A stretch of 64,000 bases of DNA from an uncultured Gammaproteobacteria bacterium (GTDB lineage: Bacteria; Patescibacteriota; Microgenomatia; CAYGWK01), in assembly GCA_964353785.1 (NCBI GenBank), contig CAYGWK010000001.1, positions 26,982 to 90,981 of the forward strand, in the 5' to 3' direction. A model generated the notes under the pieces. That model ran no database searches. It was not told the DNA's origin and saw only the letters and a list, made by a program, of their open reading frames with translations. Of this stretch, positions 13 through 61,707 are shown in pieces. The translations under genes were made by a program, and so were the position numbers. How positions within the stretch are numbered: position 1 is the stretch's first letter; each line of letters begins with the position of its first letter.

Positions 13-1308
13 ATGAATCTTTTTCAGAAAGTGGCTATAAATACTTTGGTTCAAGGACTGGGAAGAGGCGGGGTGATTTTGGCAACGATTGTTACCACCG
101 CTATTTTGACTCGTTCTTTGGGAATTTCTGGTTATGGAAATTATGTTTTTGTAACTTCTTTTATTTTACTTTTTACCTCTATTTCCGATTGGGGAACAGG
201 AATGATTTCAATTCGAGAGGCAGCCAAAGACAAAAAAGAGGAAGAAAAGATTTTTGGCAATGCTTTAGTCTTCCGCTTTATTTTGGCTTTAGTCTCTTTT
301 TTATTAGTTAATTTTCTAATTAGATTTTTACCTCAATTTAAAACTCTTGCTTTGGCAACCACCATTGCCTCAATTTTACTTTTTCTTCACTCGCTTCGGA
401 CTTCCTGTCAGATTATTTTTCAAACCAAACTTCGGTTTGAAAACATTGCCGCAGCGGAGGTAGCGATCAGTTTTTCTTTTTTAATTTTCTTACTTTTGGC
501 TTTAAAATCCTTAACTCTTTATCAAGTTTTGCTTTTTTTAGTTTTTGCCAACTTTTTGGGAACTATCCTGGCATTTTATCTGGCGCAAAGACTGGCTAAA
601 TTTGAATTTTCTCCAGACCCAAAAATTATTAAAAAAATTTTCTTTGAAGCCTTGCCTACCGGTGCTCTTCTCTTGATTTTCTCAGTCTATAACAGGGTGG
701 ATATCATAATTTTGCAAGCCCTAAAAGGTTCAGAGCCAGTTGGGATTTATGGCTTGGCTTACAAGGTTCATGACAATTTAGTTTTGGGGGCAGCTTACCT
801 CGCCAATTCTTTATTTCCAATTCTCTCAAGATGCGCAGATGAGCGCAGATTAGGAAATAGATTAGCCTTGATTTACAAAAAATCTTTTGACGTTCTTTTT
901 TTAGCCGGGATAATCCTAGTGGTTTTGGTTTATATTTTTGCTCCTTTAATCGTAGCTATCGTTGGCGGCCCGCAATTTTTCCAAAGTGTGCTTGTGTTGC
1001 GGATTTTGGTTTTTGCCACTTTTGTTGCCTATTTTAATCATTTGACTGGCTATAGTTTAATTGCCTTAGGTAAACAGAAGGTCTCCTTAATAGTTGCCAT
1101 TATCGCCTTAGTCTGGAACGTTAGTCTTAATTTAATCTTTATTCCCCGATATTCCTATCTGGCGGCCGCCGCCATTACCATTGCCACCGAAGGTTTGGTT
1201 TTAATCTTAACCAGTGTTTATCTTGCTCGGAAATTTAATCTTAAACCGTCTTTTTCTTTTCCAAAAACTTTGGTTGAAATCATTAAAACTCATGGTAAAA
1301 TCTTTTAA
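13..1308 (+). CDS. Polysaccharide biosynthesis/export membrane protein (MOP/Wzx-type flippase-like)
   Basis: 431 aa, hydrophobic throughout with about 12-14 predicted TM segments; the N-terminal 'TLVQGLGRGGVILATIVTTAILTR' resembles the polysaccharide-biosynthesis (Wzx/MurJ superfamily) N-terminus. Confidence 0.55.
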   Translation: MNLFQKVAINTLVQGLGRGGVILATIVTTAILTRSLGISGYGNYVFVTSFILLFTSISDWGTGMISIREAAKDKKEEEKIFGNALVFRFILALVSFLLVNFLIRFLPQFKTLALATTIASILLFLHSLRTSCQIIFQTKLRFENIAAAEVAISFSFLIFLLLALKSLTLYQVLLFLVFANFLGTILAFYLAQRLAKFEFSPDPKIIKKIFFEALPTGALLLIFSVYNRVDIIILQALKGSEPVGIYGLAYKVHDNLVLGAAYLANSLFPILSRCADERRLGNRLALIYKKSFDVLFLAGIILVVLVYIFAPLIVAIVGGPQFFQSVLVLRILVFATFVAYFNHLTGYSLIALGKQKVSLIVAIIALVWNVSLNLIFIPRYSYLAAAAITIATEGLVLILTSVYLARKFNLKPSFSFPKTLVEIIKTHGKIF

Positions 1309-1317
1309 CTGTCAGAA

Positions 1318-1746
1318 ATGAAAAAAATTTCAGTTTTTTGTGACGGAGGGGCGAGGAGAAATCCTGGTCCGGCAGCCATCGCTTTTGTGGTTTCGGAAGA
1401 CGGAAAAATTATTTATAAATTTTCCAAAAAAATTGGCCAGACAACCAATAATGTGGCTGAATATCAGGCAGTAATAGAAGCCTTGAAGTGGCTAAAAGCT
1501 AATCAACTAATCAACCAATCAACTAATCAACCAATCAATTTTTATTTAGATTCTCAACTAGTTGTAAATCAACTTAATGGTTTTTTCAAAATTAAAGATG
1601 CTAAACTGCGAGACTTAATAATTAAAGCAAGAATTCTTGAGCAAGAAATTAGTGGAAAAATTTTTTACAATTTGATTTCTCGACGACAGAATAAAATGGC
1701 TGATACTTTAATTAATCAAAGTCTTAACGCGGTTTCACGTTGGTAA
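1318..1746 (+). CDS. rnhA: Ribonuclease HI
   Basis: 'CDGGARRNPGPAAIAFVV' (catalytic D at N-terminus) and 'TNNVAEYQAVIEALKWL' are classic RNase H motifs; carries an internal NQ-rich insert encoded by an octamer repeat. Confidence 0.75.
   Translation: MKKISVFCDGGARRNPGPAAIAFVVSEDGKIIYKFSKKIGQTTNNVAEYQAVIEALKWLKANQLINQSTNQPINFYLDSQLVVNQLNGFFKIKDAKLRDLIIKARILEQEISGKIFYNLISRRQNKMADTLINQSLNAVSRW
1501..1538 (+). repeat. Octanucleotide tandem repeat (ctaatcaa/ccaatcaa x4) inside rnhA, encoding NQLINQSTNQPIN
   Basis: Direct reading: aatcaa|ctaatcaa|ccaatcaa|ctaatcaa|ccaatcaa. Confidence 0.8.
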
Positions 1747-14793: not shown

Positions 14794-17025
14794 ATGCCTC
14801 AAGAAAGTTTTGAAAAAGTAATTTTAGAACTTCGGTTGCCAAGAGAATCGGAGGAAACAACCGAGGCAATGGCGGCCTGTTTTTCCGCTCTGGCAAATAT
14901 TAAATCTTCATTTTTAGACCGACTTTTGGGCAAGGAAAAGCCTTTAATTTTTGAAATTGCTACTTATAATCAAATCATTCATTTTTATGCCGTTTTGCCT
15001 TTAGAGTATCAAACCTATTTTGAAAGCCAACTTTCCGCTCAATATCCTAAAGCAACCATTTTGGCTTCTCCTGATTATCTCCCTTCTTGGTTAACTTTAG
15101 GCCAGGCTTTGGTCTCTGGACAACTAAAATTAATTTCTCCATTTTATTTTCCCTTAAAAACTTATTTAGATTTTAAAGAGACTGACCCTTTATCCTCGAT
15201 TTTGGGAACTCTGGCTCGGGCCGAGAAAGAGGAGAAAGTCTTGGTTCAAATTGTTCTACTTCCGGCGGGCAAAGGTTGGCAAAGGGTTGGTTCTTCGGTT
15301 TTGCGAAAAGGAGTGACTCTTCCTGATGGAAAAATTTCCTCCCACCCTCAAGAAAAATTAATTGAGCAAAAGATTTCCCAACCAGGTTTTAGGGCGGCCA
15401 TCCGGCTTCTTGTTTGCTCACCGACGAAAGCCGCCAGCGCCTCTTTGCTTCGCCATCTGGCTGGTTCTTTTGGGGGAGTGGCTTTGGGTGAGGGAAATGC
15501 TTTTTCCTTGACAAAACCCTCTTTTTGGCAAGAGAAAAAATTTGAAAAATCAATATTTTTACGAAAACCTGGCTTTGTTCCTAAAAATCAAATCTTAAAT
15601 ACTCAAGAGCTGGCCACTATTTATCATTTACCAAGTATAACTTTGTCGGGAATTAAAAACATTGCCTGGGGAACAAAGCTAACTGGTGAGCCGCCAGACA
15701 ATTTACCAATTGCTATTGGTGCCACTGAAGAAGAAAAGCAAAAAATTAACTTTTTCGCCAGGACAGAGTTTAAAAATAAACTAATTACTTTTGGGATTAA
15801 AAAAGACGACCGCCGACGCCACATTTATATTATTGGTAAAACCGGCACCGGGAAAACAACCTTAATTGCCAATATGGCCATTAACGATATGCGAAATCGC
15901 GAAGGCTTGGCCGTGGTTGATCCTCATGGAGATTTATCAGAGATTTTATTAGATTTTATTCCTTCCCATCGTTTAAATGATGTTTGTTATCTTGATCCAT
16001 CTGACCGAGCCCATCCATTTTATTTAAATCCTTTAGAAGTTAAAGACCCAGAACACCGGGAACTGGTGGCCTCAGGAATTGTCGCCATTTTCTACAAACT
16101 TTATTCCTATTCCTGGGGACCGCGCTTAGAGTATATTTTGCGAAACGCGATTTTGACTTTACTTTCAAAGCCAGACTCAACTCTAGTTGAAGTTCCTGAA
16201 CTTTTAACCAATCGAGATTTTCGCCAAAAGGTAGTTGAGAAAATTGATGACCGGGTTTTGCGGAATTTTTGGACCAAAGAATTTGAGCAAATGTCAGAAA
16301 GACTGATGGCAGAAGCAATTTCGCCGATTTTAAATAAGGTTGGTCAGTTTGTCTCCTCTCCGATGATTCGGGGAATTATCGGTCATCCCCGCTCAACTGT
16401 AGATTTGGAAGAAATAATGAATGAAGGAAAAATTTTAATTGTTAATTTATCTCAAGGAAAGCTAGGGGAGGACAATGCCGCTCTTTTAGGAGCGATGTTT
16501 ATTACTAAAATGCAGCTGGCCTCCATGGGAAGGGTTAAAGTTCCGGAAGCCGAAAGGCGCGATTTTTATCTTTATGTTGACGAGTTTCAAAATTTTGCCA
16601 CTTCTTCGTTTATTAAAATTTTATCCGAAGCCCGAAAATACCGCTTAAATTTGGCTTTGGCAAACCAGTATATTGCCCAGGTGCCAGAAGAGGTCCAAAA
16701 AGCAATTTTTGGCAATACCGGAACCTTGCTTTCTTTTTTGGTTGGGGCTGAAGACAGTCAGATTCTTTCCCGAGAATTTGGTGGAGTTTATAAAGAAGAG
16801 GAATTGGTGGGCTTAGGGAACTATCAGATAATCTGTAAATTGGCCATTGAAAATTTAACCTCAAGACCATTTTATGCTTTTACTCTGCCTTTGCCCCGTT
16901 CGAAAAATCAAAATCGGGAAAAAGTTTTGCGTCTTTCTCAAGAAAGATACACTAAGCCCCTTGAAAAAGAGGCGCCTTTTATTCAGCCAAAATTTCAGCC
17001 AAGAGCGATTTTTGGAAGAAAATAG
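14794..17025 (+). CDS. VirD4/TraG/TraD-like (type IV coupling protein-like, DUF87/HerA-FtsK superfamily) P-loop ATPase with a soluble N-terminal domain
   Basis: Walker A 'YIIGKTGTGKTTLIANM', 'VVDPHGDL', Walker B 'FYLYVDEFQNF', and a C-terminal 'SEARKYRLNLALANQYIAQV' resembling the T4CP motif; no N-terminal TM segments. Confidence 0.6.
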   Translation: MPQESFEKVILELRLPRESEETTEAMAACFSALANIKSSFLDRLLGKEKPLIFEIATYNQIIHFYAVLPLEYQTYFESQLSAQYPKATILASPDYLPSWLTLGQALVSGQLKLISPFYFPLKTYLDFKETDPLSSILGTLARAEKEEKVLVQIVLLPAGKGWQRVGSSVLRKGVTLPDGKISSHPQEKLIEQKISQPGFRAAIRLLVCSPTKAASASLLRHLAGSFGGVALGEGNAFSLTKPSFWQEKKFEKSIFLRKPGFVPKNQILNTQELATIYHLPSITLSGIKNIAWGTKLTGEPPDNLPIAIGATEEEKQKINFFARTEFKNKLITFGIKKDDRRRHIYIIGKTGTGKTTLIANMAINDMRNREGLAVVDPHGDLSEILLDFIPSHRLNDVCYLDPSDRAHPFYLNPLEVKDPEHRELVASGIVAIFYKLYSYSWGPRLEYILRNAILTLLSKPDSTLVEVPELLTNRDFRQKVVEKIDDRVLRNFWTKEFEQMSERLMAEAISPILNKVGQFVSSPMIRGIIGHPRSTVDLEEIMNEGKILIVNLSQGKLGEDNAALLGAMFITKMQLASMGRVKVPEAERRDFYLYVDEFQNFATSSFIKILSEARKYRLNLALANQYIAQVPEEVQKAIFGNTGTLLSFLVGAEDSQILSREFGGVYKEEELVGLGNYQIICKLAIENLTSRPFYAFTLPLPRSKNQNREKVLRLSQERYTKPLEKEAPFIQPKFQPRAIFGRK

Positions 17026-17601: not shown

Positions 17602-17663
17602 TTGACAAGTAAAAAAAATTCTTCTAAAATAGCACTTGCTTGGTAAGATTGCCAAGTTTTTAG
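17602..17663 (+). promoter_or_regulatory. groESL promoter (TTGACA 17602-17607, 17-nt spacer, TAAAAT 17625-17630) followed by a degenerate CIRCE-like palindrome (TAGCACTTG...CAAGTTTTTA)
   Basis: Direct reading; the CIRCE consensus is TTAGCACTC-N9-GAGTGCTAA and only the left half-site is well conserved. Confidence 0.5.
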
Positions 17664-19687: not shown

Positions 19688-20254
19688 GTGGAATTTAGAC
19701 AATTTCAAAATAAACTTCGAAAATGCTGGATTTGTAAAGAAGTAGTCGGTCCACCCTTAGTTTGGGGGGATAAAGAAGCAAAGATTGTTCATATTGGTCA
19801 GGCACCTTCAAGGCTAGCAATTACCAGCCAGAAACCTTATTCTGATAAAAGTGGCGAGAGGTTACGGCGTAAATGGTACCAGATTTCTGATAGAGTATTT
19901 TATAATCCAAAGAATTTCTATATTACTGCTATTGCCCACTGTTTTCCGGGAAAAGATAAGAAAGGAGCAGATAAAAAGGCGCCGTTGGTTTGCGCCAAAA
20001 CTTGGCTTTTAAAAGAAATTTCCTTTTTAAAACCAAAACTTTTTCTTATCGTAGGTAAACAAGCAGCTGAATTTTTGTTTCCTGGCAAAAGTTATCAGAA
20101 ATTGATTTTTCAGGACCAAATCTTAAATGGAATCAAATGTTTGGTTTTACCGCATCCTTCACCAGCGAATATTACCTGGTTTAAAGATAATCCTGATTTT
20201 GAGAAAAAGCGATTATCCCAGATTCGAAAAATAATTCATAAGGTTTTATTTTGA
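19688..20254 (+). CDS. Uracil-DNA glycosylase family 4-like protein (non-ATG start)
   Basis: N-terminal 'CWICKEV' Cys pair, 'HIGQAPSRLAITSQKPYSDKSGERLRR' (family-4 GEAPG...G-x-x-L-like), and C-terminal 'LVLPHPSP' (HPSP motif). Confidence 0.55.
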   Translation: MEFRQFQNKLRKCWICKEVVGPPLVWGDKEAKIVHIGQAPSRLAITSQKPYSDKSGERLRRKWYQISDRVFYNPKNFYITAIAHCFPGKDKKGADKKAPLVCAKTWLLKEISFLKPKLFLIVGKQAAEFLFPGKSYQKLIFQDQILNGIKCLVLPHPSPANITWFKDNPDFEKKRLSQIRKIIHKVLF

Positions 20255-20279
20255 TTTTATGATATAATTCCCCCAACTG
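20255..20279 (+). promoter_or_regulatory. Promoter module copy 1 (TTTTATGATATAATTCCCCCAACTG; extended -10 TGaTATAAT) upstream of the PHP gene; followed by the hairpin ctgcc-ccaaa-ggcag
   Basis: Identical 25-mer also found at 21071 and 21845. Confidence 0.55.
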
Positions 20280-20297
20280 CCCCAAAGGCAGGTTTTT

Positions 20298-21059
20298 ATG
20301 AGAGAAAGAATAAAAATTGATTGCCATGTTCACTCTCGGTTTTCGGTAAAAGATTCTGTTGCTCCAGTTTGGCAGATTGAGGAGGAGAGACAAAGAAAGG
20401 CTTTAGATTGTGTAGCGGTAGTTGACCACGACACTATTGCTGAAACAGCACGAGATCTTAAAGAAACTTCTGGATTTCCCTTTATTTTAGGTGAAGAAAT
20501 ATTGACTTCAGATAAAAACAGCCGTGGTAAAAGAATTGAGATTATTGGGTTATTTCTCCAAGAGCCGATTGAGGCAGGCAAGACAATAGAAGAAACTATT
20601 TATCGAATTGATGCCCAAAAGGGAATTGTGGTTATTCCTCATCCTTTTGAAGAGTGGAGACATGGTGCCGGTGGGCCAGTCAGCCGAGTAATTATCACCA
20701 AATGTCAAGAAGATAGAATTCCAGTGGCAGTTGAAGTTTTTAACGCCCGAGCCGGGAAGAATGATAACTTTTTAGCAGAAGTCCTTTGGCTAGAATTTAA
20801 GACTAATGGTGTTTTAGCTACTGCCGGGAGCGATGCCCATAGAATTCCAGAAATAGGACGGGGATGTGTAGAAATACCACCATTCCAAACAAAAGAAGAA
20901 TTCTTAGAAGCCTTAACGCAAGCAAGAATTCATGGAGAAATCAATTCTCTCGGAACAGTCTATCATCGCTTAATGAATAGAATAGAAGTTGCCATAGGTT
21001 CTTCTTTTCAAGACTTAGGGAAACTAGTCCTGGAACAAGTAAGTAACGGTAGCCGCTAA
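20298..21059 (+). CDS. PHP-domain metal-dependent phosphoesterase
   Basis: 'IDCHVHSRFSVKDS' (PHP HxH motif), 'VVDHDT', 'IPHPFEE', 'GSDAHR'. Confidence 0.65.
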   Translation: MRERIKIDCHVHSRFSVKDSVAPVWQIEEERQRKALDCVAVVDHDTIAETARDLKETSGFPFILGEEILTSDKNSRGKRIEIIGLFLQEPIEAGKTIEETIYRIDAQKGIVVIPHPFEEWRHGAGGPVSRVIITKCQEDRIPVAVEVFNARAGKNDNFLAEVLWLEFKTNGVLATAGSDAHRIPEIGRGCVEIPPFQTKEEFLEALTQARIHGEINSLGTVYHRLMNRIEVAIGSSFQDLGKLVLEQVSNGSR

Positions 21060-21070
21060 ATATTTATCCT

Positions 21071-21095
21071 TTTTATGATATAATTCCCCCAACTG
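21071..21095 (+). promoter_or_regulatory. Promoter module copy 2 upstream of the LuxR-HTH gene; hairpin ctgtcccaaaggcag follows
   Basis: Identical 25-mer. Confidence 0.55.
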
Positions 21096-21116
21096 TCCCA
21101 AAGGCAGTTTTATTTT

Positions 21117-21857
21117 ATGGTAGTTGCTCAAGAATTAGATAACCGGCAAATTGAGACTTTGGGAGGTCCGGTAGGCTTAAGTCCAAAATTAATTGAAATT
21201 ATTCCATTCTTGGGGAGGGAGCTTACCCCCCGAGAAATTGGAGAAATTTTGGATTATCCAAAGAGTACAGTTAAAGGTAGACTGCATTGTCTTTACTTAA
21301 AATTTGGAATTACTAGGCCCGACCAAAAATCAAAACTTCTAGATACCATTAGACAAAGAGGATACTTTCAAGAAGAAAAACCTTCCAGACGAATTGAAAT
21401 TTTAAGATTATTAGGACATGGTTTGACAGATAAAAAAATTGCAGAGAATCTGAGAATTAGCCCCGAAACCGTTAAAAACCACCTTGCTACAATATTTCAA
21501 TCTTTTGAGGCACAAGATAGAACCCAAGCAGTTTTAAAAGCAATCGATCTTGGAATTTTAACATTAGAAGAGTTAATCGCCGGTTATGACTTAGATCGCT
21601 ACTTTTTGCTTTCTTTCCGAGAAGAAGATGTCCTTGCTGACATCGCAAATCCTGAAAATACCCCAGGAAATAAGGGAATTGCCAGACGTTTAGGTATTTC
21701 CTTCAAGACAGTTAAAAATCATATTGCTAATATTTTGGGCAAGCTAAATTTGTCAAACCGTACTCAGGCAGCAGTATTTTACTTGGTAGCAAAAGAAAAA
21801 GGTTTAGTTACTTCTTCGGTAAAACCTCAAGGGGGGAGTTCCGCTTTTATGATATAA
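21117..21857 (+). CDS. LuxR/GerE-family DNA-binding protein with three tandem HTH modules and no receiver domain
   Basis: Three GerE-type HTH segments: 'LTPREIGEILDYPKSTVKGRLHCLYLKFGI', 'LTDKKIAENLRISPETVKNHLATIFQSF', 'GIARRLGISFKTVKNHIANILGKLNLSNRTQAA'. Confidence 0.55.
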   Translation: MVVAQELDNRQIETLGGPVGLSPKLIEIIPFLGRELTPREIGEILDYPKSTVKGRLHCLYLKFGITRPDQKSKLLDTIRQRGYFQEEKPSRRIEILRLLGHGLTDKKIAENLRISPETVKNHLATIFQSFEAQDRTQAVLKAIDLGILTLEELIAGYDLDRYFLLSFREEDVLADIANPENTPGNKGIARRLGISFKTVKNHIANILGKLNLSNRTQAAVFYLVAKEKGLVTSSVKPQGGSSAFMI

Positions 21858-21869
21858 TTCCCCCAACTG
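21845..21869 (+). promoter_or_regulatory. Promoter module copy 3, overlapping the last codons of the LuxR gene, upstream of the receiver gene
   Basis: Identical 25-mer. Confidence 0.55.
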
Positions 21870-21886
21870 TTTACCTTGAACCGATT

Positions 21887-22249
21887 ATGTCACCAGAGAG
21901 AGCACGAATTTTTATTGCTGAAGACGAAGAAGAAGTGATAAAGATTATTGAGAGGGTGTTAATACCCGAAGGACATCAAGTTTTAATTAGAGCGACATCA
22001 TTTGAGAGCGCGATAAACGTGATTGAAGAAGCCAAGGAAAAAGGAATTAATGTTGCCTTAATTGATGGGTCTTTGTCTGGAGGACAACCAGATTATACCC
22101 ATGGTTTAAGAATTTCCCAGGCCCTTAAAGCGGCAATTCCTGGAATTAAAATTATTTCCATCTCCGGCCGAGAGGTGAATTGGGCCGATGCCAGTTGCTA
22201 CAAACCTTTTCGTCTTAATGAATTAAAAGAGAAGGTTCGAGGAATTTAA
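21887..22249 (+). CDS. Stand-alone response-regulator receiver (CheY-like) domain protein
   Basis: 'RIFIAEDEEEV' acidic pocket, 'VALIDGSL' phospho-acceptor Asp, 'KPF' near the C-terminus; 120 aa. Confidence 0.6.
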   Translation: MSPERARIFIAEDEEEVIKIIERVLIPEGHQVLIRATSFESAINVIEEAKEKGINVALIDGSLSGGQPDYTHGLRISQALKAAIPGIKIISISGREVNWADASCYKPFRLNELKEKVRGI

Positions 22250-22251
22250 TT

Positions 22252-22959
22252 TTACTTAACTGGTAAAATTGTTAATGGATTAATATGGCGGTCGTTGTCT
22301 AAAACTTCTAAGTGTAAATGGTCGCCAAAAGCCATGCCGCTGGTACCAACTCTTCCAATAACTTGGTCAATTTTAACTTCATCACCAGCAGAAACCTCAA
22401 TTCTTGAGAGGTGGGCGTAGACGGATTTTAGACCCGAACCATGATTTATAATAATATGGTTTCCTAAAGCAAAACGGTCAAAAATAACCGCCTCAACCTT
22501 CCCTTCGGTAATTGGATAAACAGGGTCGCCAGTTAAACCATCAAAATCTAAGGCCGGATGGAAAAGGTGAAAACCTTGGGTAATTTTTACCTCCTCAAGA
22601 GGAAAACGAAAACCAGCTTTAGTGGTCAGCTCGACCACTCCTGGAGAAAGAGCAGTGACTTCGGTTTCGGAAATGGTTGAAAGAGCGGAAACTTGGGGCG
22701 AAAAAATTGAGGCCGTTAAAACCAAAAGAGCCAAATTTCCCCCCAAAATAGTTTTAATTTTTCTTTTTTCAAAAAGATAGCGGAAGACCCGAGAGAATCG
22801 GGAACCAGAACGGGCGCTTTTTAGAGTCTCCAAAAGCCCTTTTTCCCCACGAAAATTTCTCCGCTTGGTCAGGGTGATTTTTAAGCGGCGGGAAGGAAAA
22901 TTTAAAGAAAAAGATAACATAACAATAAAAAAATCTCTGTTTTGGACAGAGACAGACAA
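22252..22959 (-). CDS. M23 (LytM) family metallopeptidase
   Basis: 'HPALDFDG', 'NHIIINHGSGLKSVYAHLS', 'GTSGMAFGDHLHLEV'; the M23 HxxxD and HxH motifs. Confidence 0.7.
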   Translation of the reverse strand: MSVSVQNRDFFIVMLSFSLNFPSRRLKITLTKRRNFRGEKGLLETLKSARSGSRFSRVFRYLFEKRKIKTILGGNLALLVLTASIFSPQVSALSTISETEVTALSPGVVELTTKAGFRFPLEEVKITQGFHLFHPALDFDGLTGDPVYPITEGKVEAVIFDRFALGNHIIINHGSGLKSVYAHLSRIEVSAGDEVKIDQVIGRVGTSGMAFGDHLHLEVLDNDRHINPLTILPVK

Positions 22960-23076
22960 AAAAATTCTCCGAGTTTCCTTGGAGAATTAAAACGAATTAT
23001 ATCAGAAAAAAAGGCTTTTGTCAAGTTTTGAGAAAGAGGTTGATTTTTCCCGAGCCTCCTGGTAGAATACTCTTGC

Positions 23077-23151
23077 GACCTGGTGGCTGAGTGGCTCAAG
23101 CATCGGTCTGCAAAACCGATTACGGGGGTTCAATTCCCCCCCAGGTCTCCA
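23077..23151 (+). tRNA. tRNA-Cys (anticodon GCA), with the CCA end encoded
   Basis: Hand fold: acceptor stem GACCTGG/CCAGGTC, T-arm GGGGG-TTCAATT-CCCCC, anticodon loop CTGCAAA, discriminator T, CCA. Confidence 0.75.
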
Positions 23152-26347: not shown

Positions 26348-27796
26348 TTATATCATTTTCAAGGAGGACAGGCGGAAAATTTTGGCACCATCGATAATTT
26401 TGAAGAGGGAATAATCTCTGGCCAAAATTTCCCGGAGTTTGGGAAAAGGTTTTGTCTCATCCTGAAGGTCAATGATAAAGCGAGGTTTTTCTTTTCCTAA
26501 AACCGAAGCAGTTTCTCCAAATCCGCCAAAATCGATAATATGATAGGCGACAGTGTAGCGACCAACTGGAAGGCGCCGAGATAAAGCGTAAATACAAGGA
26601 GAATCTCCCCAAATAAAGACTTTTTCATTTTTCTGGGTGTGGAGGGTGAGAAATTGAGCTAGTTGGTAGTCTCTTCCCACCTTTTGACCAAAGTAGGAAA
26701 AATATTTTTCTTGGGAATATCTTTTTGTGGCAAAAAGGAGGAAATTTTTATATGGGGAGAAAGGAGAATAAATCCAAAATCGAAAATAGAAAAGAGCCAG
26801 GAGGAAAATTGCCAAAGAGGCGGAGAGGAAAAGATGCTCTTTTGTTTTTAATTTTGAAAAGAAAAAGGCTAAAAGAAGACAAAGCGAAGGAAGACTCTGG
26901 ACCAGATAATGAGGATAGGGCCTGCCAGAAAGGGTAGCCCCAAAAAGAGAAAAAGCAAACCAAACGAGAACAAAAAGAAGGGAATTTCCTATTTCTTTTC
27001 GTTTCCATAAGGCGAGACCAACAAAGAAAACCAAGAGACCAAATCTTAGCCGAGGACTATTGCCCCAGGAAGAAAGATAAGGAAGATTTTGGAAAAAAGC
27101 AGCGGTTAAATACTGGCTTAGGGCGCCTTGGCTTAAGAAGTAGGCAAAACTTGCTAAAATGGGCAGAAGAAAACCAAGAAGCAGGAATGTAGAATTGAGA
27201 ATGTATAATTTGAATTTTTTGCGGTTAGTTAGGAAAAATACTAGAAAGACCAAAACGGCGGCAAAATCAAAAATAGCTGGTACCTTAAAAAGGGTGGCCA
27301 AGGAGAAAAAAATTCCAGCTGAAAAAAAGACCCATTTAGATTGTTTTTCTCCGCAAAATATCCGCAGGATTCCCGCAATAGTGAAAAGGATCAGAAAAAC
27401 TTCGGCATTAGCCACTCCGCCTTCAAATAAAGGTATTGAGGAAAAAAAGACAAAAGACAAAGTTGAGATTTTGATAAGTTTTTCTTCTTTTTGGAAAAAA
27501 ATCTGGGCCAGTTTATAAAATAGAAAAATGGTTGCCAGTCCCCAAAATAAAAGAAGTGCCCTAAACCAAAAAAGATTACCCGATAAGGCGGCTAAAAGAT
27601 AAAGAAGAGGAGGTTTGTTATCGTGGATTTGGCGATAAAGGACAAGACCCTGTTGAACAGCCTGACCTAAGGTAAGATAAATACACTCATCGCCATAAGA
27701 ATAAGGCTCAAAAAGAGAAGGGAGGCGTAAGAGAAAAGCCAACCCCAGTCCCAAGATTAGCCACATTGGTATTTTGATGTTTCTTTTTTGAACCAT
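26348..27796 (-). CDS. GT39/GT83 (ArnT/PMT-like) polyprenyl-phosphate-dependent membrane glycosyltransferase
   Basis: N-terminal 'YGDECIYLTLGQAV...HDNKPPLLYLL' (DE motif in loop 1), then about 11 TM segments. Confidence 0.6.
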   Translation of the reverse strand: MVQKRNIKIPMWLILGLGLAFLLRLPSLFEPYSYGDECIYLTLGQAVQQGLVLYRQIHDNKPPLLYLLAALSGNLFWFRALLLFWGLATIFLFYKLAQIFFQKEEKLIKISTLSFVFFSSIPLFEGGVANAEVFLILFTIAGILRIFCGEKQSKWVFFSAGIFFSLATLFKVPAIFDFAAVLVFLVFFLTNRKKFKLYILNSTFLLLGFLLPILASFAYFLSQGALSQYLTAAFFQNLPYLSSWGNSPRLRFGLLVFFVGLALWKRKEIGNSLLFVLVWFAFSLFGATLSGRPYPHYLVQSLPSLCLLLAFFFSKLKTKEHLFLSASLAIFLLALFYFRFWIYSPFSPYKNFLLFATKRYSQEKYFSYFGQKVGRDYQLAQFLTLHTQKNEKVFIWGDSPCIYALSRRLPVGRYTVAYHIIDFGGFGETASVLGKEKPRFIIDLQDETKPFPKLREILARDYSLFKIIDGAKIFRLSSLKMI

Positions 27797-49686: not shown

Positions 49687-50193
49687 TTAGAAGGCTAAAA
49701 CTAAAGCCAGTCCTAAAATTAGAATTCCTCCAAGGACCGCTCCCCAGGTTGGGGCAGAAAAACCTGCTGGAGGAAGTTCGACCAGAGTTGGGGTTGGAGT
49801 AACTTCTTCCGTTGGTGTCGGCGTAACTTCCTCAGTTGGAGTTGGGGTAACTGTCCCGGTTGGAGTTGGAGTAACTGTTCCTGTCGGAGTTGGAGTCGGT
49901 GTTTCAGTCGGAGTAGGCGTAGTTGTCCCAGTTGGTGTTGGAGTTGGAGTCTCAGTTGGTGTTGGAGTTATTGTTCCGGTTGGCGTCGGGGTGGGAGTGA
50001 GCAGAGTTATATTAAAGGTTAATTTGCACTCTGAAATTGGTTCTCTGGCAGGAGCCGGGACCGGAACAGTTGGAGCAACTGGTTGTTTGCCAGCTTGATA
50101 GAGTTTAATTGCCGTTATCACCGCGATTGCTCCCAAGGCTATTGTAGCTAGAGCAATTAAGATTAGATACCAATTTTGTTTTAATCTATTCAT
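49687..50193 (-). CDS. TM-anchored TP-repeat (TPTPTGT x about 8) surface protein with a C-terminal hydrophobic segment
   Basis: N-terminal TM; 'TPTPTGTITPTPTETPTPTPTGT...'; C-terminal 'LPPAGFSAPTWGAVLGGILILGLALVLAF'. Confidence 0.45.
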   Translation of the reverse strand: MNRLKQNWYLILIALATIALGAIAVITAIKLYQAGKQPVAPTVPVPAPAREPISECKLTFNITLLTPTPTPTGTITPTPTETPTPTPTGTTTPTPTETPTPTPTGTVTPTPTGTVTPTPTEEVTPTPTEEVTPTPTLVELPPAGFSAPTWGAVLGGILILGLALVLAF

Positions 50194-56532: not shown

Positions 56533-57755
56533 TGGCCATAACGATAAACATCAACGGTCATCTTTTCCCCGTCGTTACAGCCCACCGAGAAGTTTTGTTG
56601 AGTAACTGTTTTTAATGCCCCAAAATCAGCTGTTTGGCGCCACTCTCCACATTTTAAAGGACAAGTCTGATTGGTAACATCATATTTGGTTTCACCTACA
56701 CTCCAGTTGGCTCCGGTAGAGCCATAACAATAAAGGGAAATCGTGCAATCTCCGCCCCCTCCAGAGACCATTTGAAATTTCATTCGGCGAGACAGATAAG
56801 AAACGGAAGTTGAGGAATTACAACCTACGGTGTAAGTTCCAGTTTTAATCCAAGATAAAGTTGGGGTTGGGCTAGGAATTCCGGTTATTGTCGGTGTAGG
56901 CGAGGGCGTTGGCAAAGACGTAGGTGTTGGGGTTGGGATAGCCAGGATGAGGTCTTGGCTGGGTGAGGACTCGCTTATAGCAAAGTTGGCCGAAGCGGCT
57001 CCGTTCTGGCCTGCCTGAACATCAATCAAAACCCTGTCATTTCCGTCAAAATCAAAAAAAGCTCCCAGACCTTGCTTTCTGGTATTTTTGATATCCACTA
57101 CCCAGCCTTCATCACTTTTTGTAACGGTTGACATCAAAGCCGATTTGGTGTCGCTATCGTCTTTTTTGAGCCTGACATAGACCAAAGCACCGGAAATTTT
57201 ATTTCCACCCTGGTCTTTAATAAAGCCATATATTGGACGGGGGTTACCGCTGAGCTCAAGAGTCTTGGGAGTTTTTTGTCCTTTGGCTGTTCCGCCCTTA
57301 ACCCAACGCTCTCCAGCTGGATTTAAACCATAAAGGTCAGGTCCAGATTTAATCTTAAAATAGTAAGTTGTTTCTGCATTTAGGTTAAAAATGGAAACAT
57401 GATGAGTAGTTGAAGAAAAATTTTCTCCGCCTCGGTCATCATAAGTAGTTTTATCGAGGTTGTCTTGGTTGGGGCTGTATTTTAGCCAACCAGTGGTTTG
57501 GGTAAAGGAATTGTCGTTGCCAAGGTCAGAAGAAGTCCAAGAAACAGAGAACCCACCGCCATGGAGATTGGTAATTTTTACATTAGTTGGTCTGGCTTCG
57601 GCTCCGACTGCTTTTTCTTGGTAAATTTGTTGTTGCTGAACCAGAAAAACGGCTACCGGTAAAGCCACAAGGATAAAAAGAAAGACCAAAAGACTGAAAA
57701 TTTGCTTTCGGGAAAGCTTGGGAAAGTTTGGTTTTTTTATTTCTGGAAATTTCAT
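56529..57755 (-). CDS. Secreted FN3-like domain protein (paralog of 51719..53092) with a Cys-containing C-terminal domain
   Basis: 'VKITNLHGGGFSVSWTSSD...TTYYFKIKSG'; N-terminal TM/signal. Confidence 0.45.
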   Translation of the reverse strand: MKFPEIKKPNFPKLSRKQIFSLLVFLFILVALPVAVFLVQQQQIYQEKAVGAEARPTNVKITNLHGGGFSVSWTSSDLGNDNSFTQTTGWLKYSPNQDNLDKTTYDDRGGENFSSTTHHVSIFNLNAETTYYFKIKSGPDLYGLNPAGERWVKGGTAKGQKTPKTLELSGNPRPIYGFIKDQGGNKISGALVYVRLKKDDSDTKSALMSTVTKSDEGWVVDIKNTRKQGLGAFFDFDGNDRVLIDVQAGQNGAASANFAISESSPSQDLILAIPTPTPTSLPTPSPTPTITGIPSPTPTLSWIKTGTYTVGCNSSTSVSYLSRRMKFQMVSGGGGDCTISLYCYGSTGANWSVGETKYDVTNQTCPLKCGEWRQTADFGALKTVTQQNFSVGCNDGEKMTVDVYRYGH

Positions 57756-59234
57756 TTAAAGCGTCCAGGTACAAGCCTTAGTTACATTTATAAAGTAATT
57801 TTGTTCATTTTGCAAGTTAAAATTTTCTCCCCCATAATTTTTAACAAAATCCTCCCACCAATCTTTTCTTTTTCGGGAAATTGCTACACTTGTTCCTGCC
57901 CCACAATCATTGTCAATATCCTCCAAAGCTGTCTTGGCCGTATAGCCTGAAATATCTGGCCAAGTGATTTTATTCCAACCTGAAGAGAGGCTAAACTTTT
58001 TTTCTTGGGGAACCTTGGTTAAAATTTTGGCACTATGGGCAGAAAGACTGACTTTCTTAATTTGAACCGCGTCGTCATAATAATTTCCTCCTAGGTCAAT
58101 ATTTTCGTCTCTGTCGGCGGTAGGGTTGACTAAGACCGTACCATACTCAAAATTTCTTCGATAAGACCGATGATTGGGAATCTTAAAGCCATCAATAGTT
58201 GAATCTTGAATGGGTTTTCCCAATTTAACTTGGGGTCTAGTATCTTCTACCATACTTGGAAGTTCCGTTTCTCGGTCGTAGCAGTAACAAAAATAAGCCG
58301 AGCGATCATTTCCTGAGGAAATAGCTAAAAGATAGGAAGCAAAGCTGAAATTTTCAACTCTTTTTCTTTCAGTAAGACTTTCATCGAGATTTTTAGTTTT
58401 AACCAAGATAATCTGTCCTGGTTTAGTTTTAATTGCATTAATCAAGATACCAACTGCCTCTCTCCAACCTTCCTCCCCGACAGTCCTTTTATTTAAAAAA
58501 CCATCAAATTGGGCTCCATCTGATTCTGACTTGTCCCAGAAATCTTTAGTATTTTTGTATTCATTCCAATGAGAGGGAATCGGGTTCCAAAGATGAAGTT
58601 TTTCCCCAAGGCGTTGTTTTAAAAACTTAAGCCGACCAATTTGGTCGCTAATCCACTCTCCTTGAGTATAGTCTCCACCTCTTTGAGGGTCGGGATCAAT
58701 AATTGGATGAGGTTGAAAATTAGTCTGGATAACCATCGGGCCAGAAACATCGGCAAATATTCCATCATAGCCTTTAACAAGTTGTTCTTGATACTGTTCC
58801 CAGACAAACTCGCGGGTTTCTTGGAGATTTGGTTTAAGAACCTTACAGCTCTCTGCAAGCCAGTGAACAATCTCATTTCCTTTGGCTCTAAGCCACCATT
58901 CCGGATGCTCCTCAACTAATGGTCCCCAATTTTCTTGGCCACAAATTGCGCTGTGGCCTTTGTATTTTAAGATTATAAAATTGGGATTTAACTGATGAAG
59001 TCTATCAATTTGCTCTTTGGTTAAAGAGCCATTCTGGTCACGATAGACATCATAATGACTAGCGATGTACTGAAGATCAGTATCAGTTAGTTTTTTGGCA
59101 TCAATCCAGCAAATCCAAGCTCCGCCGGGAATTTCCGGTTCTGCTTGGGCCCAAGAAACAGGAATTGAAGGTTTAATTTGCCAGAGAAGAAAAGAAAACA
59201 AGGAGATAAAGATAAAAAGAATAATTTTTCTCAC
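57756..59234 (-). CDS. Secreted glycoside-hydrolase-like protein (TIM-barrel GHL-type) with the shared C-terminal ~88-aa module; GTG start overlapping the upstream TGA
   Basis: Signal peptide; C-terminal 'SSGWNKITWPDISGYTAKTALEDIDNDCGAGTSVAISRKRKDWWEDFVKNYGGENFNLQNEQNYFINVTKACTWTL'. Confidence 0.45.
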   Translation of the reverse strand: MRKIILFIFISLFSFLLWQIKPSIPVSWAQAEPEIPGGAWICWIDAKKLTDTDLQYIASHYDVYRDQNGSLTKEQIDRLHQLNPNFIILKYKGHSAICGQENWGPLVEEHPEWWLRAKGNEIVHWLAESCKVLKPNLQETREFVWEQYQEQLVKGYDGIFADVSGPMVIQTNFQPHPIIDPDPQRGGDYTQGEWISDQIGRLKFLKQRLGEKLHLWNPIPSHWNEYKNTKDFWDKSESDGAQFDGFLNKRTVGEEGWREAVGILINAIKTKPGQIILVKTKNLDESLTERKRVENFSFASYLLAISSGNDRSAYFCYCYDRETELPSMVEDTRPQVKLGKPIQDSTIDGFKIPNHRSYRRNFEYGTVLVNPTADRDENIDLGGNYYDDAVQIKKVSLSAHSAKILTKVPQEKKFSLSSGWNKITWPDISGYTAKTALEDIDNDCGAGTSVAISRKRKDWWEDFVKNYGGENFNLQNEQNYFINVTKACTWTL

Positions 59235-60397
59235 AGGTTCCAATTGCAAGCTTTAGTTACATTTATAAAGTAATCTTGTTCATTTTGCAAATTAAAATTT
59301 CCTCCGCCAAAGTTTTTTATAAAATCCTCCCACCAATCTTTTCTTTTTCGGGAAATTGCTACACTTGTTCCTGTCCCACAATCATTATCAATATCAACTA
59401 AAGCAGAGGAGGCAGTATAGCCTGAAATACCCGACCAAGTAATTTTATTCCAACCCGAAGAGAGAGAAAAGGTTTTTTTGCCAGTGGCTAGCTCTTTGTA
59501 GATATAAAAAAGAGAAGAAGGACTTAAGTCGAGGTTAAGAAGTGATTGTTTCATTCCAGGCGAATTACTCCAGAAGAGAACCTCAACCCCTTTCTCTTTA
59601 GCAATTGAATAAAATTTAGGTAGAAGTTTCTCGCTTTCTTCCCAGGTTTGTGACTCTGGATTGAAACTATGACCAGACTCGGTAATCCAAATTGGTTTTT
59701 TTAAATCGTATTTTTTAAGAAATCCTTTGGCTTGGTCAATCCGGTTTGAGAAATAACTCTCGTTTCCGTACGAATGAAAATTAAAGACATCAAAATATTG
59801 CCCACCTCCTTTTTGTAAAACGAGGTCGGTGAAACCGTTTTCCTTTGCGAACGCGCCCGCAACTCCACCAAACAAGACAGTGGCTTGGGGATCATTTTCT
59901 TTAATGGTTTGATAGGCTGTCTTAAGAATTTTGAAATAATAAGTTGAACACTGTTGGGCTCCCTGGTCACAAAATTTTTCTCCACCTGGTTCGTTCCAAA
60001 TCTCCCAATAATGGACTAAATTGAGGCCAGGTGGACCAAAACGCAAAACCATTTGGCGAACATGCTCTTTCCAGGCGGTCAAATTTTTGGCTGTGTCGAC
60101 CAAGTTATCTTCCTGGAGTCTGCCTAGTGGTTGAATTCCGTGTTGGGAAAGAAGTAACAATCTTCGCTCTGTTTGTTCATCGGACCCTATTCCCTCTCTT
60201 GCCCATTTAACTCCTGCCTCGGCCTGTTTTTGGGTGAGGACTTGCTCGTGCTGAATAATTTCTTGCTCGCTGAATCCTTCAAAAAAACGGCCATTAAAAA
60301 ACAGGGCAAGACCAAATGGTGAAATTACTGCTTGAATCTTGCTCACTATGATTAAAGAAAATGTTGAAAAAATCAAAGCAAATAAAATTTTTTTCAC
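59231..60397 (-). CDS. Secreted GH5-like (clan GH-A) glycoside hydrolase with the shared C-terminal module
   Basis: 'HYWEIWNEPG' (acid/base NEP motif), 'PIWITESGHS' (nucleophile TE-x-G), and the same C-terminal module. Confidence 0.55.
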   Translation of the reverse strand: MKKILFALIFSTFSLIIVSKIQAVISPFGLALFFNGRFFEGFSEQEIIQHEQVLTQKQAEAGVKWAREGIGSDEQTERRLLLLSQHGIQPLGRLQEDNLVDTAKNLTAWKEHVRQMVLRFGPPGLNLVHYWEIWNEPGGEKFCDQGAQQCSTYYFKILKTAYQTIKENDPQATVLFGGVAGAFAKENGFTDLVLQKGGGQYFDVFNFHSYGNESYFSNRIDQAKGFLKKYDLKKPIWITESGHSFNPESQTWEESEKLLPKFYSIAKEKGVEVLFWSNSPGMKQSLLNLDLSPSSLFYIYKELATGKKTFSLSSGWNKITWSGISGYTASSALVDIDNDCGTGTSVAISRKRKDWWEDFIKNFGGGNFNLQNEQDYFINVTKACNWNL

Positions 60398-61707
60398 AGG
60401 TTCCAATTACAGTCTTTAGTTACATTTATAAAGTAATCTTGTTCATTTTGTAAATTAAAATTTTCACCCCCGAAATCTTTGACAAAATCTTTCCACCAAT
60501 TCTTTTGCTTCCTGGCGATTGCCATCGCTGTTCCTGCCCCACAATCATTATCAATATCCTCCAAAGCTGTCTTAGCAGTATAGCCTGAAATATCTGGCCA
60601 GGCAATCTTGTTCCAGCCAGAAGAAAGAATAAAAGTTTTTTTACCAGTGGCTAGCTCTTGATAAGCAAAGAAAAAAGGTGTCAGCTCGAGGGTGTCTTTG
60701 TCGATCAGAGAACCTGTCCAAAAAACCTTGCTTATTTTAATGGTAACGCCGGGAATTTTAGTTTTTCCTAGGGCAATGTTATATCTTTCTCGCATTATTT
60801 CAACTTTTTCTTCTTCAGTTGGCGGCTCGCCTGGCATCCAAGAACCCCAAGGACCTCCCTCGGTAACCCAAACCTGTTTTCCTTGAAGGTGGTAATTTGA
60901 ATTATTAATCATCCAGTTCATTGCTTTGATTACCTCAACAAATTGATTTGTTGGACCATATTTATGGAAACCTAAAATATCAGTATATTGTCCTGCGCCA
61001 ATATACTTACCATTTTCATTCTTCATGGCAAAAACTTTACCTATCCAGGTTTGTTCTCCCTCTTCTTTCTTTTCAATTGCTATCTGATCTTTAGCCCAGG
61101 CACCCTCAAAGCTTATCCAAGCTACTGCTTGAGGATCAGCTGCTTTAATCGTCTGGTACTTCATTTTGACATCGGCCAAAAATTTATTGGGCTTTATTGC
61201 TTCTTCTCCAGAGAGTTCAGGGACCATTTCCCAATGTTTAATTGCCCCATTGCCTTTAGAGCCATATCGTCCCACTACCTCTTTGAGCCATTGTTGAAGA
61301 TAATTTGTTTTCTCGGTTTCAGATAAAGACTCAAGCCAATCAGGAGTACAATCTCCGCCTGTCCCCAGGTTTGACATAAGTAAAAATCCATAACTTTTAA
61401 GCAAAGAAATCTCTTGGTCGTGTTTTTCCCAGTCCAATGGGCCATTTTTCTGAGGCTGGACTCTTCTCCAACAAACAAGGGGATCTCCTCGGGGCGCACC
61501 ACCCCATCTTATCCATTTGACTCCGGCATCTTTGTAGGCTTGATAGATTTTTTCTTTTTTTCCTGGGTCAAAGCCCCAATAGTTTATAAAATGTTTGCCA
61601 AAAGGAGAATCCTCATCGGAAAATTGGGAAAATGTTTTGCTGGGAGACCGAAGCAAAGTAGCCAATAAAATTGTTAATAAAAAGAAGATAAAAACATATT
61701 TTTTCAT
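60394..61707 (-). CDS. Secreted clan GH-A-like glycoside hydrolase with the shared C-terminal module
   Basis: 'VWVTEGGPWG' nucleophile-like motif and 'HWEMVPE'; the same C-terminal module. Confidence 0.45.
   Translation of the reverse strand: MKKYVFIFFLLTILLATLLRSPSKTFSQFSDEDSPFGKHFINYWGFDPGKKEKIYQAYKDAGVKWIRWGGAPRGDPLVCWRRVQPQKNGPLDWEKHDQEISLLKSYGFLLMSNLGTGGDCTPDWLESLSETEKTNYLQQWLKEVVGRYGSKGNGAIKHWEMVPELSGEEAIKPNKFLADVKMKYQTIKAADPQAVAWISFEGAWAKDQIAIEKKEEGEQTWIGKVFAMKNENGKYIGAGQYTDILGFHKYGPTNQFVEVIKAMNWMINNSNYHLQGKQVWVTEGGPWGSWMPGEPPTEEEKVEIMRERYNIALGKTKIPGVTIKISKVFWTGSLIDKDTLELTPFFFAYQELATGKKTFILSSGWNKIAWPDISGYTAKTALEDIDNDCGAGTAMAIARKQKNWWKDFVKDFGGENFNLQNEQDYFINVTKDCNWNL

Follow-up and report, generated by a model that had tools for sequence, protein, structure and literature searches.

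The 64,000-nucleotide (nt) stretch analysed here, positions 26,982 to 90,981 of contig CAYGWK010000001.1 and hereafter called the window, carries a 25-mer, TTTTATGATATAATTCCCCCAACTG, in three exact copies upstream of three consecutive genes, which encode a PHP/PHP_C phosphoesterase, a multi-helix-turn-helix (HTH) GerE/LuxR-type protein and a stand-alone receiver domain. The 25-mer is probably the core of a promoter-plus-leader cassette, specific to the lineage of Candidatus Shapirobacteria and close Microgenomates, which recombination has set before unrelated genes by reuse or capture. Reuse of a promoter-leader cassette by recombination is well supported, and for the hairpin and U-tract that complete the cassette a role as stabiliser or insulator ranks ahead of that of a regulated attenuator.

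All three copies of the 25-mer lie on the forward strand (20255-20279, 21071-21095 and 21845-21869), just as first reported, and dinucleotide-preserving shuffles give an expectation of 0.00 matches. No fourth match is found in the window on either strand at up to three mismatches, nor does the core TATAATTCCCCC, at zero or one mismatch, match the window outside the three copies. Between copies 1 and 2 the similarity extends to 37-41 nt at 95% identity and takes in the hairpin, while copy 3 is identical to copy 2 at 26 of 26 positions and is without the hairpin. The stop codon TAA of the LuxR-type gene (21855-21857) sits within the TATAAT of copy 3, so that this copy is indeed embedded in the end of that gene, as the original prediction had stated. 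It had also placed the module some 20-30 nt before each ATG; the proximity holds, and the distance from the end of the 25-mer to the ATG is actually 18, 21 and 17 nt for copies 1, 2 and 3. Window positions 20642-22903, with copies 2 and 3 inside, recur at 100% identity in an independent Logan assembly (L003, run ERR4334734), and so the repeat is not an assembly artefact.

Each copy contains TGATATAAT, a TGnTATAAT-type extended −10 (at 20260, 21076 and 21850), and at a spacing of 17 base pairs (bp) none of the three has a −35 match; the groES and M23 peptidase promoters in the window do carry TTGACA. In orthologous loci the TGnTATAAT keeps its place as TGA-, TGC- or TGT-TATAAT, and other TGNTATAAT sites in the window also precede start codons, which agrees with the earlier view of the repeat as a promoter module with an extended −10. 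In 14 of 15 instances 7-9 nt separate the −10 from the CTGCC stem of the hairpin. The cassette would thus consist of a T-rich stretch and an extended −10 (TTTTATGnTATAAT) without a −35, a pyrimidine-rich discriminator (TCCCCC in this sub-clade) and a start at AACTG. Sigma-70 geometry puts the start on the AA of AACTG, 7-8 nt after TATAAT, with the C-run upstream of it between the −10 and the predicted start; by that standard geometry the C-run is then probably an untranscribed discriminator and not the transcribed C-rich leader that had been proposed. In the full form the first 15-19 nt of the RNA would make up a GC-rich hairpin of 5-7 bp, followed by U5-6 and the AUG with no Shine-Dalgarno (SD) sequence; for copies 1 and 2 the predicted RNA has 0-2 unpaired nt ahead of the hairpin and U5-7 behind it. 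The 5-bp hairpin ctgcc-ccaaa-ggcag described earlier for both these copies is found as such in copy 1; in copy 2 it is a 7-bp AACTGTC-CCAAA-GGCAGTT.

PHP orthologs are many, and their contigs, together with those of LuxR, were compared with the window (L-numbers denote relatives' contigs or loci). At GroEL the window and Candidatus Shapirobacteria bacterium CG10_big_fil_rev_8_21_14_0_10_40_9 share 97% identity, which places the window in the Microgenomates/Patescibacteria. Upstream of PHP every lineage with a PHP identity of at least 59% (59-74%) has the order (TGn)TATAAT, 7-9 nt, CTGCC-loop-GGCAG, T5-6 and ATG, and orthologous cassettes stand before PHP in L013, L001, L014, L015, L016, L017, L019 and L020; the cassette is degenerate in L021 (PHP 58% identical) and absent in L022 (48%). 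The string TATAATTCCCCCAACTGCC is exact in the window, L013 and L001, at a PHP third-codon identity of only 68% (L013) and 57% (L001), and in L001 the DNA upstream of the −10 cannot be aligned with the window and yet TATAATTCCCCCAACTGCCC.AAAGGC.G is kept. Such preservation at low third-codon identity argues for purifying selection on the −10, the discriminator and the start region, and to that extent bears out strong selection, one of the two causes of identity originally offered. Distant lineages have other pyrimidine-rich discriminators (AACCCCAA, GCCCTTA, ACCTTTG and CTTTTCGA).

The cassette precedes at least six different genes in the relatives, and the downstream genes are non-homologous (PHP, GerE/LuxR and Response_reg in the window). 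It stands before hyp93 in L015, where a strong SD and a GTG follow, before hyp212 in L013, before hyp123 and, on the opposite strand, a HAD hydrolase in L019, before hyp142 in L036, L030 and L013, and before hyp210 in L012, where the hairpin is lost. Before LuxR in L001 the hairpin and TTTTATTTTATG are kept and the TATAATTCCCCC part is absent. A covariance model built from 13 instances gave high scores for known instances only in 214 kb of window and relatives' DNA; a match at 1293-1339 was rejected as a hairpin, being spurious, since its 'loop' contains the true ATG of an RNase H-like gene. That gene, an open reading frame (ORF) with MKKISVFCDGGARRNPGPAA in the region 1293-1345 (+) and an ATG near 1318, is preceded by TGGTAAAAT-CTTTT-AACTG, with the same AACTG at the predicted start as in the cassette. 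The exact 20-mer TGATATAATTCCCCCAACTG had no match in genome_contigs or metagenome_contigs, collections without the source genome, and one of the few matches to the relaxed TGNTATAATTCCCCCAACTG there, L012, is a true close relative. Viral contigs gave five 17-mer matches without the hairpin and none to the hairpin pattern, and so the cassette is not phage-borne.

The three genes of the window lie in a conserved frame, groES-groEL-[UDG]-PHP-[variable slot]-M23 peptidase(−)-PEGA/SH3-UbiA(−)-GT4(−), in which the slot between groEL/PHP and M23 has a different cargo in every lineage, including the strain with a 97% identical GroEL. The slot holds LuxR and the receiver in the window, LuxR in L001, an RNase T-like gene and VTT in L014 and L017, VTT in L020, a 93-aa protein in L015 and two hypothetical proteins in L019. 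At copy 2 the stretch between the PHP stop and the end of TAAATATTTATCCTTTTTATGnTATAAT is homologous in the window and L013, and directly after the −10 the two part. The hyp142 cassette of the 97%-GroEL strain and of L013, TTATGATATAATTTCCCCAACTG-TTTACCCTGAACCATTTCTGGTTTAGGG-CCCGAAAGGCAGGTTTTATG, has the canonical form with an inner hairpin of 28 nt added, and in L036, L030 and L013 it runs on into the inner hairpin and CCCGAAAGGCAGG-TTTT-ATG. Window copy 3 matches the first 42 nt of this hyp142 cassette (about 39 of 42) and then passes directly into the receiver ATG. Homology of the receiver gene to that of L023 begins at the ATG, and both proteins fall into one cluster of at least 90% identity; in L023 and L012 the receiver lacks a separate promoter and lies behind RNase T-like or hyp210 genes with an overlapping stop/start or an SD. 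Copy 3 being the 5' 42 nt of the relatives' cassette fused at the receiver ATG, comparison of the sequences indicates a putative promoter capture.

In the proposed history recombination between cassette copies would have swapped cargo and brought LuxR in, and the receiver gene, last in its operon and promoterless in relatives, would have captured the truncated cassette as its promoter. The exact identity of the three copies would follow from recent copying or gene conversion together with purifying selection; the recent duplication suggested at the outset gains support from the cassette before unrelated genes and from the match of copy 3 to the hyp142 cassette. The discriminator is TCCCCC in all three window copies versus TTCCCC in the hyp142-type copies of relatives, which suggests that some homogenisation may have taken place within the window genome. 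As regards hyp142 itself, the gene is present or absent among near-identical Shapirobacteria strains (L036 2600-3220; L029 5500-5578; L012), with both forms in sample Ga0210018, it has been deleted independently at different short repeats, and in L013 (2093-2350) it is shortened by a different deletion; the hyp142 region appears to be decaying and rearranging rapidly.

With the cassette in place each of the three genes would be transcribed separately from its own promoter. The 5'-terminal hairpin may shield the transcript against 5'-end-dependent decay, hairpin and U-tract together may act as a weak intrinsic terminator which insulates the gene from upstream read-through, and the U-tract may serve as an SD-independent ribosome landing site; the adjacency of hairpin and U-run would also be compatible with attenuation of the cassette's own transcripts. 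Hairpin energies are −7.8 kcal/mol in copy 1 and −6.1 kcal/mol in copy 2, and lie between −6 and −10 kcal/mol across instances, as compared with −10.9 for the groEL terminator of the window. The loops are of 4-6 nt (TAAC, CCAAA, CGAAA, CAAGA, CGAGA, TAAAG, TGATTT, CCCAAA) and the stem is near-invariant, its two substitutions, CTGTC in window copy 2 and GGCGG in L001, both being sense-strand U.G wobbles, one of which strikes the CAG core. Where the upstream gene is divergent, in L001, L014 and L019, the hairpin persists, and so it belongs to the downstream leader and is not merely the terminator of an upstream gene. The variable loops, the restriction of changes to U.G and the retention at divergent upstream genes favour a hairpin acting at the RNA level over a dimer operator. 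Sequestration of an SD by the 3' arm (GGCAG/GGAG) was considered and rejected, as it is not consistent from instance to instance. Copy 3 has no stable fold; a G6 run at 21832-21837 upstream of it can pair with its C5 run in LuxR read-through RNA at −14 kcal/mol, and as a structure this pairing (21832-21864) was rejected, since it is no better than shuffled controls (z = −0.5).

Several points weigh against the cassette as described. The start site, the status of the C-run as discriminator and the 5'-terminal position of the hairpin are predictions from standard promoter geometry. In the CTGCC stem no pair is changed on both sides and two are wobbles, which is not above shuffles, and with no compensatory pairs covariation cannot prove its RNA structure; the invariance of the stem could also mean sequence-specific recognition or recent common descent. 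The conserved U-tract right behind the hairpin is unneeded for a pure stabiliser, and a terminator or attenuator fits it better. Copy counts cover 64 kb of the genome, so that further copies elsewhere are possible. Copy 3, if functional, would work without a hairpin, and the L001 LuxR gene has the hairpin without a convincing −10, and so hairpin and promoter are separable.

The U-tract brings in a regulated attenuator, in which hairpin and U-tract would form a promoter-proximal intrinsic terminator, most transcripts would stop at about +25, and an antitermination signal or factor would be required, the genes being co-regulated at the RNA level. A consensus scan of the window for a GC-rich stem with a direct U-run does pick up both hairpins (20277-20291 and 21091-21109) as terminator-like, the stem resembles the groEL terminator in size and energy, and the U-run always lies directly behind the stem, even in the hyp93 and M23 leaders with their start codon further downstream; the invariance of the stem sequence across paralogous copies is moreover what a specific RNA-binding factor would lead one to expect. 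However a 5-bp stem of −6 to −9 kcal/mol makes a weak terminator, the leader of 20-25 nt shows no alternative antiterminator structure, no candidate antiterminator gene is linked, and copy 3 and the hyp210 copy of L012 keep the promoter without the hairpin. Rfam has no match to offer; one sub-threshold chance match fell in the PHP coding region (RAGATH-33, 19 bits versus 120, E 0.91). Regulated attenuation is thus possible and on the whole rather unlikely.

The original prediction had gone on to suggest that the repeat is a binding site for the adjacent LuxR-type regulator, that is, that the 25-mer or the palindrome AACTGCC-N5-GGCAGTT is an operator through which this multi-HTH protein would govern its own expression together with that of PHP and the receiver. 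In favour of this, each of the three copies precedes or flanks the LuxR gene, binding to inverted repeats is a property of GerE/LuxR proteins, and the hairpin is such a repeat, ending in CTG..CAG and lying over the predicted start as repressor sites typically do. The cassette is nevertheless conserved in at least six lineages without LuxR at the locus (L014, L015, L017, L019, L020 and the strain L036+L012, which is the 97%-GroEL strain and has the entire groEL-M23 interval covered with no LuxR), whereas the LuxR-type protein itself has a single true ortholog cluster (P0002, 52% identity) among 5.8 billion proteins. In L001, the other lineage that bears LuxR, the C-run is missing before LuxR itself, and in the window copy 3 is without the dyad. 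Half-site spacing is not fixed, given loops of 4, 5 or 6 nt, and both stem variants touch the CAG/CTG core and yet remain U.G-compatible, as they would in RNA. Control by LuxR is accordingly improbable, and the case cautions that a repeated upstream motif beside a regulator gene need not be the operator of that regulator.

The 25-mer could instead be the strongest common promoter of the genome, standing before many genes outside the window, which the original prediction had named as the generic alternative to a specific regulon. The search covered about half of the 122-kb source contig; within it TGNTATAAT is enriched (9 sites versus 1.5 expected) and marks other gene starts, and a few further low-GC contigs (L004, L009 and L011) have TGNTATAATTCCCCCAACTG in front of unrelated genes. 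But the six TGNTATAAT sites outside the cassettes have discriminators of their own, the sequence after the −10 being unrelated to TCCCCCAACTG, so that within 64 kb the other promoters have TGNTATAAT alone in common with the cassette; there is no further copy of the 25-mer there, the collection-wide matches to TGNTATAATTCCCCCAACTG (2 and 7) are about the chance level for 19 specified bases with about half of them in coding-like, higher-GC contexts, and in the relatives' DNA examined the cassette family is confined to the groEL-M23 neighbourhood. A generic promoter of this kind is very improbable. Four of these six TGNTATAAT sites (4409, 26347 on the reverse strand, 34808 and 38827) are 7-10 nt upstream of an ATG, which suggests that several genes of the genome are expressed as leaderless or near-leaderless mRNAs. 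The UDG orthologs in L013, L015 and L036 have TATAAT or TAAAAT 6 nt before a GTG.

That the 25-mer is primarily the target of site-specific, integron-like cassette shuffling, with promoter activity secondary, is scarcely credible: the cargo does differ between every pair of relatives and several homology breakpoints do lie in or at the edge of the cassette, but the breakpoints inside cassettes vary, lying after TATAAT, after CCCC or at the ATG, the short repeats involved differ between the hyp142 deletions, terminal inverted repeats and target duplications are absent, and no integrase or recombinase is linked to the cassette in any locus compared, and so ordinary homologous or microhomology recombination between repeats suffices to explain the pattern. 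A dif/Xer-like or integron-like site was rejected on the same grounds of no recombinase and no fixed crossover point. Also set aside were a LexA/SOS box (CTG-N9-CAG, with the repair-type neighbours UDG, PHP, DEDDh exonuclease and DinB), because of the variable spacing, the CAG-to-CGG change and the unrelated cargo, and a repeat of the miniature inverted-repeat transposable element or repetitive extragenic palindrome type, as there are no flanking repeats and the copies occur only in promoter position in one neighbourhood.

Going beyond the cassette, a terminator-like hairpin and U-tract exactly at the transcription start might be a general, selected leader design in Shapirobacteria and Microgenomates, an idea we hold tentatively and think doubtful. 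Three sequence families unrelated to one another have a hairpin at +1 of this design: the CTGCC cassette, the groES leader and the M23 leader, the last with covariation. Seven orthologous M23 leaders have a −10, 7-9 nt, a hairpin and U7-8, a layout as in the cassette with unrelated sequence, and of the seven pairs of their first hairpin five are compensatory, its position being conserved and its sequence not. In the M23 leader of the window two successive units of hairpin and U-run precede the ATG. The groES leaders yielded no common structure on consensus folding; the groES inverted repeat in L014 and L017 is TTAGCACTG-N9-GAGTGATAG, directly after the −10 and CIRCE-like, the window version being degenerate, and its likeness to CIRCE suggests possible control by HrcA. 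Of the 30 hairpin plus T-run sites within the window, 3 have a −10-like hexamer 5-10 nt upstream, versus a background of 3%, in itself a weak enrichment, and so it is the ortholog comparisons that carry the weight for the layout. If the idea were true, the clade would have in the +1 hairpin a constitutive insulator or attenuator, or an SD-independent start signal, and the CTGCC cassette would be a portable form of it; the shuffling of cassettes in the groEL-M23 slot would likewise be driven by the short identical copies of this cassette.

The features of the locus, with the two comparison leaders, are collected in Table 1. The LuxR-type protein is built of three GerE/sigma-70 region-4-like HTH units without a receiver or ligand domain, which is an unusual architecture and a very rare one. 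Over its last 14 or so codons the frame differs between the window (21800-21857) and L001 (3440-3500) on common DNA, GGTAAAACCTCAAG, and so the C-terminal tail is not conserved as protein; in L001 the 3' end of the gene overlaps the convergent M23 gene by 64 nt. Beyond M23 a tRNA-Cys(GCA) at 23077-23151 (+) overlaps the called GTG start (23091) of the PEGA/SH3 ORF, which more probably starts just behind the tRNA, at the ATG near 23151 (MKQYILPG). Upstream of groES a TrwB/VirD4-like coupling-protein ATPase (14794-17025, +) is conserved in a close relative (L029 1-2123). Elsewhere in the window, eight tandem 24-nt units (GTTGGAGTTGGAGTAACT...-type, 49763-50002) are probably a repetitive protein region, and 57716-60653 contains three paralogous segments of about 300 nt with 75-78% identity.

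Table 1. Cassette copies, adjoining genes and comparison leaders, in window coordinates
Feature	Position	Strand	Remarks
UDG-family gene	19688..20254	+	Stop codon abuts copy 1; −10-like GATAAAAT 6-7 nt upstream of start (leaderless type)
Cassette copy 1	20255..20297	+	Upstream of PHP gene; ATG at 20298
Copy 1, extended −10 TGATATAAT	20260-20268	+	TATAAT 20263-20268
Copy 1, discriminator TCCCCC	20269-20274	+	Predicted start A20275/20276
Copy 1, hairpin CTGCC-CCAAA-GGCAG	20277-20291	+	In minimum-energy fold
Copy 1, G + U5	20292-20297	+	
PHP/PHP_C phosphoesterase gene	20298..21059	+	Anchor gene of the cassette across relatives
Cassette copy 2	21071..21116	+	Upstream of LuxR-type gene; ATG at 21117
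Copy 2, extended −10 TGATATAAT	21076-21084	+	
Copy 2, discriminator TCCCCC	21085-21090	+	Predicted start 21091/21092
Copy 2, 7-bp hairpin AACTGTC-CCAAA-GGCAGTT	21091-21109	+	One U.G; then UUAUUUU
Multi-HTH GerE/LuxR-type gene	21117..21857	+	Cargo of variable slot
Cassette copy 3	21845..21886	+	Upstream of receiver gene; ATG at 21887; truncated 'hyp142-type'
Copy 3, extended −10 TGATATAAT	21850-21858	+	Followed by TCCCCC and AACTGTTTACCTTGAACCGATT; predicted start 21865/21866; no stable fold
Stand-alone receiver-domain gene	21887..22249	+	Score exactly at Pfam threshold
M23 peptidase promoter and leader	22913..23024	−	Comparison; TTGACA-17-TGATATAAT, 9 nt, hairpin TTCTCC..GGAGAA, U7
groES promoter and leader	17602..17663	+	Comparison; TTGACA-17-TAAAAT, 7 nt, inverted repeat 17638-17657, UUUUAG, ATG 17664

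To our knowledge there is almost no experimental work on promoters, leaders and gene regulation in bacteria of the Candidate Phyla Radiation. The cassette is a compact, well-delimited promoter-leader unit of about 45 nt, amenable to direct testing in vitro or in a reporter host, and it has natural variants: the full form, one lacking the hairpin, one with an inner hairpin inserted and one lacking the promoter. The receiver offers an example of an operon-internal gene apparently gaining its own promoter once its upstream neighbours were replaced. Overall this is a clear yet fairly ordinary case of promoter reuse, in an often-rearranged neighbourhood of uncultivated groundwater Candidatus Shapirobacteria.

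Reuse of promoters before non-homologous genes has been described, as putative mobile promoters, in a survey whose threshold was 80% identity or more across 50 nt or more of the region −150 to −50, so that the −10 was mostly excluded (Matus-Garcia, Nijveen & van Passel 2012, PMC3575422). Like these, the cassette is a near-identical upstream sequence before non-homologous genes, common to related genomes and with no known mobile element attached, and it raises the same question of selection versus recent duplication as the cause of identity. In contrast its unit is 25-42 nt (25 in all three copies, 41 in copies 1 and 2), it spans −46 to −1 and so includes the −10, the start and the leader, and its copies are clustered within 1.6 kb; by length and position it falls outside the formal definition used in that survey, although the concept applies. 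With extended −10 promoters of the sigma-70/sigma-A type the cassette shares a perfect TGnTATAAT, no −35 and a place just upstream of genes, and it differs from the general class in that a conserved C-rich discriminator and a fixed start of the transcribed region (AACTG and the hairpin) are joined to the promoter.

In E. coli and B. subtilis, mRNAs gain stability from stem-loops at the 5' terminus (Emory 1992, Bouvet & Belasco 1992, Hambraeus 2002, as related in PMC3997798). As in ompA and papA of E. coli and the aprE leader of B. subtilis, the cassette hairpin is predicted to lie at most 2 nt from the RNA 5' end, with its position conserved and its loop not; unlike in these, where a normal SD-containing leader comes after the hairpin, the cassette hairpin would be followed at once by a U-tract and the AUG, in a terminator-like arrangement. 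Intrinsic terminators and attenuators share with it the GC-rich stem and U-run, in the size class of the window groEL terminator, but the cassette hairpin is placed at +1 to +25 of its own unit, shows no antiterminator fold, ligand or protein-binding domain, and is retained without a co-directional upstream gene. Finally, the cassette resembles lux-box and LexA-box operators (CTG-N10-CAG) in having an inverted repeat with CTG...CAG ends over the predicted start, and differs from them in a spacer that varies from CTG-N8 to N10-CAG, in tolerating wobble-compatible changes of the core, and in being present without a LuxR gene.

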